Shown: piece by piece, positions 55,907-56,728 of the stretch
Layout of the letters: each line of letters begins with the position of its first letter
Position numbering within the stretch: the stretch's first letter is position 1
Assembly: GCF_057098645.1 (NCBI RefSeq)
Contig: NZ_CM169472.1
DNA: 64,000 nucleotides
Reading direction: 5' to 3' (one strand)
Made by a program: the position numbers and the translations under genes
Notes under the pieces: model-generated
Databases searched by the model: none
Told to the model about the DNA's origin: nothing
The model's input: the letters and a program-made list of their open reading frames with translations, nothing else

Positions 55907-56039
55907 TGGTGCATCCGGGAGGATGACTCACTGGCGTTCGCCCTTCGGGCCGTTGCTAAAGCAACGTTATCCTTCCTGGTGCCTGCGGTTAATTCCGCTA
56001 CCTCTTCGATATCTTCATTGCTGAAGATTTCGGAGAATA
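55907..56039 (-). repeat. tRNA-array spacer unit 1 (variant copy), ends with a tRNA-Arg 3'-end mimic
   Basis: Begins on the plus strand with TGGTGCATCCGGGAGGA, identical to the start of each tRNA-Arg gene, then diverges. Confidence 0.6.
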
Positions 56040-56116
56040 TGGTGCATCCGGGAGGATTCGAACCTCCGACCGCTCGGTTCGTAGCCGAGTACTCTATCCA
56101 GCTGAGCTACGGATGC
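56040..56116 (-). tRNA. argQ: tRNA-Arg (ACG)
   Basis: Reverse complement GCATCCGTAGCTCAGCTGGATAGAGTACTCGGCTACGAACCGAGCGGTCGGAGGTTCGAATCCTCCCGGATGCACCA; anticodon ACG; first of four identical copies. Confidence 0.85.
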
Positions 56117-56178
56117 ATCGGGAAAATTTATTTTACTGCTGATATTGATATCGCTACTAAAGCCATATCAAGTAAGAG

Positions 56179-56314
56179 ATGGTGCATCCGGGAGGATTAC
56201 TCGCCTTGCGGCTCGCCCTTCGGGCCGTTGCTGGCGCAACGTTATCCTCCCTGGTGCCTGCGGTTAATTCCGCTACCTCTTCGATATCTTCATTGCTGAA
56301 GATTTCGGAGAATA
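56179..56314 (-). repeat. tRNA-array spacer unit 2 with tRNA-Arg 3'-end mimic
   Basis: About 136-bp unit nearly identical to unit 3. Confidence 0.6.
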
Positions 56315-56391
56315 TGGTGCATCCGGGAGGATTCGAACCTCCGACCGCTCGGTTCGTAGCCGAGTACTCTATCCAGCTGAGCTACGGATGC
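56315..56391 (-). tRNA. argZ: tRNA-Arg (ACG)
   Basis: Identical 77-nt tRNA sequence. Confidence 0.85.
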
Positions 56392-56453
56392 ATCGGGAAA
56401 TTTATTTTACTGCTGATATTGATACCGCTACTAAAGCTGTATCAAGTAAGAGA

Positions 56454-56530
56454 TGGTGCATCCGGGAGGATTCGAACCTCCGACCGCTCGGTTCGTAGCC
56501 GAGTACTCTATCCAGCTGAGCTACGGATGC
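56454..56530 (-). tRNA. argY: tRNA-Arg (ACG)
   Basis: Identical 77-nt tRNA sequence; 62-bp spacer from argZ. Confidence 0.85.
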
Positions 56531-56594
56531 ATCGGGAAACTTACTTTACTGCAGATTTTTTGATACCGCTACTAAAGCCGCATCAAGTAAGAGA

Positions 56595-56728
56595 TGGTGC
56601 ATCCGGGAGGATTACTCGCCTTGCGGCTCGCCCTTCGGGCCGTTGCTAAAGCAACGTTATCCTCCCTGGTGCCTGCGGTTATTACCGCCACCTCTTCCAT
56701 ACCTTCATCGCTGAAAGTACGTAGAATA
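56595..56728 (-). repeat. tRNA-array spacer unit 3 with tRNA-Arg 3'-end mimic
   Basis: Same unit as 56179..56314. Confidence 0.6.

Follow-up and report, generated by a model that had tools for sequence, protein, structure and literature searches.

Results

Organization of the serV-argVYZQ array

The window, which is the whole 64,000-nucleotide stretch of DNA analyzed here (contig NZ_CM169472.1 of RefSeq assembly GCF_057098645.1), is from Escherichia coli and carries the serV-argV-argY-argZ-argQ operon on its minus strand, flanked by csrA and yqaB and lying directly downstream of csrA. The region is identical in sequence to that of E. coli O145 strain RM9872. Few substitutions separate the array from that of K-12, in which layout and gene spacing are the same, as a previous reading made from the sequence alone (hereafter the sequence-only reading) had stated, and in which the spacers carry no annotation. 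A gap of 3 nt separates serV from argV. On the minus strand three long spacers, designated units A, B, and C, begin at the base immediately after the CCA of argV, argZ, and argQ, respectively, and argY is the sole tRNA-Arg gene of the window array that has no such unit after it (Table 1). The first of the short spacers holds a hairpin when folded in its predicted context.

Table 1. Coordinates of the features of the serV-argVYZQ region in the window, in order of transcription (TLR, tRNA-linked repeat)
Feature	Position	Strand	Length (nt)	Basis
Sigma-70-like promoter match, upstream of serV	56964-56991	-		Consensus scan only; no more matches than in shuffled sequence
serV, tRNA-Ser(GCU), operon gene 1	56809-56901	-		ARAGORN; Rfam tRNA 56.8 bits; layout as K-12 serV
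argV, tRNA-Arg(ACG)	56729-56805	-		ARAGORN, Rfam, K-12 layout
Unit A, TLR, homologue of K-12 raV	56595-56728	-	134	Repeat alignment, tail copy, Rfam RtT, fold, core
Unit A, closing-helix 5' strand	56659-56672	-		
Unit A, core 19-mer	56628-56646	-	19	
Unit A, tail copy	56595-56613	-	19	
Short spacer 1, argY leader, starts TCTCTTACTTGAT	56531-56594	-	64	Short-spacer alignment
argY, tRNA-Arg(ACG)	56454-56530	-		ARAGORN, Rfam
Short spacer 2, argZ leader	56392-56453	-	62	Short-spacer alignment
argZ, tRNA-Arg(ACG)	56315-56391	-		ARAGORN, Rfam
Unit B, TLR, homologue of raZ	56180-56314	-	135	Alignment, tail copy, fold, Rfam RtT, core
Unit B, closing-helix 5' strand	56244-56257	-		
Unit B, core 19-mer	56213-56231	-	19	
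Unit B, tail copy	56180-56198	-	19	
Short spacer 3, argQ leader	56117-56179	-	63	Short-spacer alignment
argQ, tRNA-Arg(ACG), last tRNA of the operon	56040-56116	-		ARAGORN, Rfam
Unit C, TLR, homologue of raQ, most diverged copy	55907-56039	-	133	Alignment, tail copy, fold, Rfam RtT, core
Unit C, core 19-mer	55938-55956	-	19	
Unit C, tail copy	55907-55924	-	18	
Candidate terminator hairpin and T run, upstream of yqaB; possible operon end	55786-55800	-		Consensus scan only

The long spacers had been described as starting, on the plus strand, with a 17-mer from the tRNA-Arg 3' end, and all three do so exactly. The 17-mer, TGGTGCATCCGGGAGGA, occurs seven times in the window, where 0.01 occurrences are expected by chance; four of these lie in the tRNA-Arg genes, and each of the other three opens a long spacer on the plus strand (at 55907, 56180, and 56595). 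The starts assigned to the two outer spacers were accurate, whereas the middle one had been placed at 56179. The exact match to the tRNA-Arg 3' end is longer than had been noticed, extending over 19, 19, and 18 nt in units A, B, and C. Because the operon is on the minus strand, the tRNA tail stands at the end of each RNA unit, and the portrayal of the units as ending in a tRNA 3'-end mimic is correct for the transcribed strand. The spacers are indeed repeats of one another, with a mean column identity of 95% in the repeat alignment, but they are not uniformly 134 bp long, and roughly 115 nt of structured non-coding sequence lies between the direct repeats. The short spacers share a motif, as had been reported, but there are three of them rather than two, and their lengths are 64, 62, and 63 nt instead of a uniform 62 bp.

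Several other candidate features of the region were rejected. A plus-strand tRNA-Arg(tcg) at 56714-56785 is an antisense artefact over argV, and a plus-strand intrinsic terminator in unit C (55951-55966) is the CGUUGC hairpin, a part of the unit core, read on the wrong strand. The long open reading frames of the array read through tRNA genes. A small protein comparable to tpr of the tyrT repeats was likewise rejected, since the only start codon within a unit opens a reading frame of 6 codons in E. coli that is not conserved in the Enterobacter or Citrobacter type. The units are not pseudo-tRNAs or degenerate tRNAs: there is no cloverleaf, ARAGORN and the Rfam tRNA model both find no tRNA within them, and only the 3' 18-19 nt are tRNA-derived. 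Weak Rfam hits to YrlA, Plastid-ycf2, HPnc0260, and mir-9128 fall on the tRNA genes or on their antisense strand, far below the gathering scores.

The long spacers are tRNA-linked repeats

The units belong to a family that is already known, the tRNA-linked repeats (TLRs). According to the summary in Stenum et al. 2021 (PMC8144298), TLRs were first described by Egan and Landy in 1978, and E. coli K-12 contains 22 of them at ten loci, which Rudd catalogued in 1999 and which EcoGene annotates. [quoted passage not shown] The three units directly follow a stable-RNA gene of a tRNA operon and share its strand, and each ends in an exact 3' suffix of the upstream tRNA of that length. They also have their place among the 22 repeats of K-12, where raQ, raZ, and raV are named for this operon and the layout is identical to that of the window. 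These three names appear in the strain table of the supplement to PMC8144298, in which raQ/Z/V are deleted along with argY/Z/Q, and the finding is therefore a rediscovery: this family, including its copies in the arg operon, had already been named. The feature is real, ordinary, and was correctly observed; the judgment that it was probably conserved and not new was sound, the units being the EcoGene repeats raV, raZ, and raQ, and it was the family itself that went unrecognized. Stenum et al. 2021 state that TLRs have no known function (PMC8144298), and the same source relates that rtT RNA was claimed early on to modulate the stringent response, a claim since withdrawn.

The Arg units represent a remodelled branch of the RtT family

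In a permissive scan the units match the Rfam family RtT (RF00391), a repeat RNA originally discovered in the tyrT operon, with scores of 29.2-32.7 bits for unit A, 26.9 bits for unit B, and 22.0 bits for unit C (E = 2.6e-4 to 0.16). The copies in the K-12 arg operon score 22.8-31 bits against the same model, whereas the true tyrT copies of K-12 score 133-137 bits. Units A, B, and C (22-33 bits) do not reach the RtT gathering score of 45 bits, and annotation pipelines therefore miss them.

The low scores reflect the structure of the alignment. The units align near-identically to RtT model positions of about 60 to 130, the common 3' half. This core, present in both RtT and the Arg units, consists of AACGUUGC-loop-GCAACG, the GCCCGAAGGGC hairpin, a variable covarying hairpin, and GAGUAAUCC, beyond which lies the tRNA-Tyr tail in the tyrT copies and the tRNA-Arg tail in the arg copies. 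Within it, the 19-mer GCAACGRCCCGAAGGGYGA is exact in the Arg units and in the tyrT copies. The RtT 5' half, comprising the hairpins from the closing helix to the core, is absent from the Arg units in the alignment to the model; here GGGAGGAU leads directly into AACGUUGC, and the 5' 56 nt form unrelated hairpins. It is because this 5' half has been replaced that the Enterobacteriaceae Arg type falls under the RtT threshold. Copies linked to tRNA-Lys, tRNA-Pro, and tRNA-Glu score above that threshold, as does a full-length RtT-type copy that follows tRNA-Arg in Yersinia (70.8 bits). The Arg-linked copy of Hafnia also appears to be of this longer form.

The units fold and their helices are conserved by compensatory change

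The G/C-rich segment of each spacer had been called structured, and this is borne out by the predicted folds: unit A has a free energy of -60.3 kcal/mol (z = -5.4 against shuffled controls), unit B -60.5 kcal/mol (z = -6.9), and unit C -47.5 kcal/mol (z = -4.45, with the 3' module alone at z = -1.05). The unit fold is retained in the prediction for an argV-TLR-argY precursor. In these folds the tail copy, AUCCUCCCGGAUGC, pairs with GCACCAGGGAGGAU about 60 nt upstream to form a predicted closing helix of 13 bp that has one 1x1 A-A mismatch and leaves ACCA free. Three small hairpins take the place of the T-loop, and the closing helix resembles the stacked acceptor and T-arm of a tRNA. Unit C departs from this pattern in having a weaker closing helix (GGAAGG) and a changed fourth hairpin.

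Covariation was assessed in an alignment of 23 different Arg-type units drawn from about 12 genera. In the consensus fold 96.8% of cells are paired, compared with 29-50% when the pairing partners are displaced by 1-3 columns; compensatory changes occur at nine pairs, against 1-3 in these displaced controls; and the covariation score was matched by 0 of 500 column shuffles. The G-U wobbles are compatible with the transcribed strand only. Across the wider family the fourth hairpin covaries as well, one of its pairs occurring as GC in 20 sequences, CG in 8, UA in 6, and AU in 3, and in the GGGYGAG/CGARU pairing that flanks it a C:G pair is replaced by U:A in 12 of 40 family sequences.

The 5' strand of the closing helix differs according to the tRNA to which the repeat is linked, being GCGGGGAAGGAU in Tyr-linked, GCACCAGGGAGGAU in Arg-linked, and ACGUG(A/C)(A/C)GGAU in Lys-linked elements. 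The mean duplex energy with the cognate tail is -16.6 kcal/mol, compared with -11.5 kcal/mol for non-cognate tails, a contrast that is modest because non-cognate tails have AUCC and pyrimidine runs in common. The cognate tail is the best partner of the 5' strand in 68 of 93 elements. The 5' strand thus co-varies with the tRNA tail across the family, a point that may be modestly new, as we found no earlier statement of it in the literature searched.

One core is fused to six stable RNAs

A genome scan with the core 19-mer GCAACGRCCCGAAGGGYGA, using one genome per species and annotating the fetched DNA with ARAGORN, recovered at least 120 loci. Since the scan was seeded on this fixed 19-mer, the constancy of hairpins 2 and 3 across these loci is in part a product of ascertainment. 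The listed loci are nearly all from Enterobacterales, with some from Orbales, Vibrionales, Alteromonadales, and Oceanospirillales, and a few are chance matches in coding DNA. Among the matches listed, 128 elements have an upstream tRNA, and in 102 of these the final 12 nt or more reproduce the tail of that tRNA exactly, the copy being 18-19 nt long in nearly all of the 102; the remainder are mutated or truncated copies. By tRNA, the tail-copy elements among these matches are divided into 42 linked to Tyr, 30 to Lys, 22 to Arg, 6 to Pro, and 2 to Glu. A further group in the list ends in the 3' end of 5S rRNA and is of the RrA/B/F type, located between the rrn terminators T1 and T2. A single core has therefore been fused to six stable RNAs: tRNA-Tyr, tRNA-Lys, tRNA-Arg, tRNA-Pro, tRNA-Glu, and 5S rRNA.

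In all five tRNA types the duplicated segment runs from T-loop position 58/59 to CCA. This regularity, the presence of the same core at many loci, and the existence of filled and empty sites whose only difference is one unit and one tail copy would be expected if the units were scars or miniature versions of a mobile element that enters stable-RNA genes at the T-loop and leaves a second copy of the 3' end, as do integrase-borne islands with their 16-20 bp repeat of a tRNA 3' end. We consider such an origin very improbable. No recombinase gene or island cargo is present between the direct repeats of the window array, the units have no integrase or other coding capacity (the open reading frames of the region being artefacts of read-through of tRNA genes), and they are tandem and only about 130-180 nt long. 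Moreover, the 3' end repeated in the 5S-linked copies is one without a T-loop, and recombination between direct repeats accounts equally well for the precise empty sites.

Arrangement of the array differs among E. coli strains

In 4187 of 5426 complete genomes a single alignment spans at least 80% of the 1.1-kb array, and the other complete genomes differ by whole modules. Eight E. coli loci showed six arrangements of tRNA-Arg genes and TLRs. One has four tRNA-Arg genes with a TLR after each, another, from a single strain, has five tRNA-Arg genes and a terminal TLR only, and several are mixtures. In a further one the terminal TLR is cut exactly at an internal GGCACCA and joined to the normal trailer, the product of a deletion between two GCACCA direct repeats. 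Where sites can be compared as filled and empty, the difference is exactly one unit and one tail copy. These six arrangements, with their gains and losses of modules, indicate that the repeats are active substrates of recombination. In the DNA itself, the tails and spacers, being repeated, act as the recombining sequences and shift the numbers of tRNA-Arg genes and TLRs between strains.

The strain with five genes and a lone terminal TLR, together with the other arrangements, shows that a TLR is not needed for the retention of a tRNA-Arg gene. TLRs likewise cannot be needed for the maturation of tRNA-Arg, given that argY lacks one, that the five-gene strain exists, and that a strain without any of the 22 TLRs has been constructed (PMC8144298). 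The state of argY, the strains with almost no TLRs, and the 22-TLR deletion strain count against any essential role.

The sequence-only reading had offered two mechanisms for the repeats, relics of unequal crossing-over or built-in signals for 3' maturation; the first is supported as a process within populations, the second matches the proposal published for the 5S-linked members and is plausible here, and neither is complete. In its neutral form the first holds that the units are what unequal crossing-over and gene conversion have left behind in tandem tRNA arrays, that concerted evolution keeps them uniform, and that the tail copy has no role at the RNA level. The gain and loss of whole modules between strains agrees with it, as do the polymorphism within E. 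coli for the presence of a unit at a given position, the deletions that some variants carry between short direct repeats such as GCACCA, the construction of a strain free of all 22 TLRs, and the lack of a known function (PMC8144298). Concerted evolution within one array, however, predicts neither the conservation of the core from Enterobacterales to Orbales, Vibrionales, Alteromonadales, and Oceanospirillales (among the matches listed) on five stable RNAs besides tRNA-Arg, nor the compensatory substitutions in several helices, nor a 5' strand that tracks the cognate tRNA tail. We regard a purely neutral origin as possible but unlikely. On the two points that the sequence-only reading had named as capable of overturning it, we find conserved structure and spacer sequences that do not vary freely, although the presence of a unit at each position does vary among strains.

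Discussion

Proposed processing of the units from the tRNA precursor

The reading that best accounts for the whole of the evidence, and to which we assign a probability of about 0.8, is that the long spacers are TLRs, counterparts of K-12 raV, raZ, and raQ, that they form a diverged branch of RtT with a remodelled 5' half, and that each is a folded element in which the tail copy would act as a 3'-end signal. In this model the units would be co-transcribed in the polycistronic precursor and would fold independently. The closing helix, the free ACCA, and the A/U-rich trailer may mimic the 3'-end signal of a genuine tRNA; RNase E would then cleave just past this signal, and exonucleases would shorten the new end as far as CCA. 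A discrete RNA of about 134 nt would thereby be released, as is documented for rtT RNA and RrB. By analogy with these relatives, the unit is likely to be a self-folding spacer with the tail copy as its 3' processing signal, and it is plausible that this role carries over from the 5S- and Tyr-linked TLRs. Discrete processed RNAs are documented for RrA/B/F and, in work cited by the same paper, for rtT (PMC8144298). The 3' end of RrB maps 3 nt past the repeated 5S tail, and recognition by RNase E has been proposed (PMC8144298).

A released RNA might instead function as a regulatory small RNA or a protein sponge that titrates CsrA or Hfq and reports transcription of the tRNA operon, as has been proposed for RrA/B/F. 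RrB binds Hfq and CsrA in vitro (PMC8144298), the arg operon lies next to csrA, and the units contain GGA triplets (AGGGAGGAU, CGGAUG). In the predicted and consensus folds, however, these triplets are inside helices and not in loops, and the predicted folds of units A, B, and C do not present the several loop-exposed GGA motifs by which CsrA is sequestered. A CsrA-sponge predictor gives values below 0.01 for 19 tRNA-operon TLRs, and the phenotypes of RrB are modest and inconsistent (PMC8144298). The sponge suggested by the proximity of csrA is thus unsupported, and regulation by titration in general seems to us improbable.

The likeness of the closing helix to a tRNA arm allows a more speculative proposal: TLRs may have been selected as natural acceptor/T-arm minihelix RNAs that act as substrates or decoys for the enzymes of tRNA ends, buffering or reporting the flux of tRNA maturation. 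The 5' strand would then co-evolve with the cognate tail so that the unit displays a tRNA-like helix and a free NCCA on a conserved platform of three hairpins. If this were so, the enzymes concerned would be RNase E, RNase T/PH, the CCA-adding enzyme, poly(A) polymerase, and RNase P, the last of which would cut before the G of GCACC to yield a tRNA-like piece of about 78 nt. We hold this proposal to be improbable.

Significance of the repeats

What the analysis adds is only modestly new: the Arg units are a 5'-remodelled branch of RtT lying under the Rfam threshold, and the partner of the tail in the closing helix co-varies with the tRNA across the family. RefSeq/PGAP annotation and the Rfam gathering score leave all three units unlabelled, and they will therefore go on being rediscovered. 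The TLR family is conserved over the Gammaproteobacteria with clear structural covariation, yet has no known function (PMC8144298), and in E. coli the repeats drive copy-number variation in the major tRNA-Arg array. The same core lies in the rrnB T1-T2 cassette, which Stenum et al. count among the most widely used plasmid terminators (PMC8144298), so that any activity of the family would be of practical importance.

Comparison with known systems

The closest relatives of the window units are raV, raZ, and raQ of K-12, from which they differ in nothing essential. RtT RNA, or rttR, of the tyrT-tyrV operon shares with the Arg units the core, an end formed by the cognate tail, a closing helix that uses the tail, and a position directly after the tRNA; the curated Rfam structure of RtT includes the closing helix with the tail. 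The two differ in their 5' regions, where RtT has GAACCUUCGAC...AAGGUUC and CGAGCG..AGCGAGA segments and the Arg units, lacking both, have two unrelated hairpins instead, and in their lengths, 171-178 nt for RtT compared with about 134 nt for the Arg units. Bosl and Kersten reportedly put rtT RNA at 171 nt in 1991.

The acceptor/T-arm minihelices that serve as model substrates of tRNA enzymes, reportedly in work of McClain, Guerrier-Takada, and Altman in 1987 and of Schimmel, resemble the units in having a continuous helix of about 12-13 bp, built on the 3' strands of the acceptor and T-stem, and an NCCA end left free. The units differ from them in having a three-hairpin junction in place of the T-loop and a 1x1 A-A mismatch, and the likeness is one of predicted fold.

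RrA, RrB, and RrF, located between T1 and T2 of rrnA, rrnB, and rrnD, have the same core 19-mer as the Arg units, as seen at E. coli and other loci of our scan, and likewise have a 3' end that copies that of the stable RNA before them. Transcription and processing are established for them, the 3' end being ascribed to recognition of the copied tail by RNase E (PMC8144298). Their tail is that of 5S rRNA and their expression needs read-through of T1, whereas the tail of the Arg units is that of a tRNA; in addition, they bind CsrA and Hfq, whereas the TLRs of tRNA operons are predicted not to bind CsrA (PMC8144298). Finally, 3'ETS-leuZ (Lalaouna et al. 2015, as cited in PMC8144298) is, like the RNAs proposed here, released from a polycistronic tRNA precursor by the enzymes that process tRNAs. 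As described there, it is unstructured, acts as a sponge that base-pairs with RyhB and RybB, and has no copy of a tRNA tail, whereas the Arg units are structured and carry such a copy at their 3' end.

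Short spacers and neighbors of the arginine tRNA array

A hairpin of roughly 10 bp (UUGAUAUGGC-loop-GCGAUAUCAA) is common to all three short spacers in the window, and they begin with UCUCUUACUUGAU after a real tRNA and after a tRNA-linked repeat (TLR) alike. A plus-strand tRNA-Arg(tcg) called by ARAGORN overlaps argV and the beginning of unit A, the TLR that follows argV; this call is antisense to argV and without the support of the Rfam tRNA model, and it was rejected. The MicA sRNA, a neighbor to be expected at this place on the E. coli chromosome, lies about 3 kb from the array.

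Features discussed, with positions in the window or within loci (L) from the core scan
Feature	Location	Strand	Source	Remark
Short spacers	window 56531-56594, 56392-56453, 56117-56179	-		tRNA leaders
ARAGORN tRNA-Arg(tcg)	window 56714-56785	+		rejected
MicA sRNA	window 53058-53129	+		Rfam 83.9 bits
Variant array	L124:1-370		E. coli 2020N21-110-15, NZ_CM125669.1	five tRNA-Arg genes
Variant array	L126:600-1630		E. coli A1.S1.65, NZ_CP146591.1	five tRNA-Arg genes in tandem
Arg-linked TLRs	L116:6429-7098		Klebsiella oxytoca	both 5'-region types
Short Lys-linked TLRs (~98 nt)	L045:2160-3060		E. coli lysT-valT operon	between tRNA-Lys genes
Core copies	L050:9700-9760; L051:1050-1200		Pectobacterium zantedeschiae	tandem (CAACGTTGCGCAGCAACGGCCCGAAGGGTGA...CCGCCATAAAAAAACG)

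Variation among Arg- and Lys-linked repeats

In E. coli 2020N21-110-15, the terminal TLR ends exactly at an internal GGCACCA and is followed by the normal trailer, a 72-nt core module having been deleted between two GCACCA direct repeats; another gap in this array, 102 nt long, joins the opening ~40 nt of a TLR to a short spacer. In strain A1.S1.65, short spacers alone separate the tRNA-Arg genes, and the sole TLR, the terminal one, bears a point mutation in its core (GCAGCGGCCCG). The E. coli-like (CUUCAGCAACGAAG) and Enterobacter-like (AACAGC..GCUGUU) types of 5' region occur together in the K. oxytoca array, where two TLR copies end in ACCC in place of ACCA. At the lysT-valT operon, the Rfam model of the tyrT-operon repeat RNA (RtT) attains 55-61 bits only with a match that spans a tRNA gene, and the annotated coordinates of short Lys-linked copies of this kind are therefore likely to be wrong.

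Copies lacking an exact tRNA tail and copies linked to 5S rRNA

The tandem cores of P. zantedeschiae carry no copy of a tRNA or 5S tail, and their retrieved flanking DNA contains no tRNA; they may represent a tail-less branch of the TLR family. Full-length RtT-type copies follow tRNA-Arg(CCG) at L018 and L040 (Marinobacterium, Amphritea), scoring 89-101 bits at L018, and in a suffix test their 3' ends did not reproduce the tail of the preceding tRNA exactly. The tail-copy rule may be looser outside the Enterobacterales. Among the matches listed, the core is joined to a 5S rRNA 3' end (AACTGCCAGGCATCAAAT) at L007, L041, L043, L044, L047, L053, L054, L075, L083, L084 and L108, with thrV- or aspT-type tRNAs or terminators downstream. 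These 5S-linked copies belong to the RrA/B/F type, and the rrnB T1-T2 cassette found in widely used cloning vectors carries the same core with one or two substitutions.
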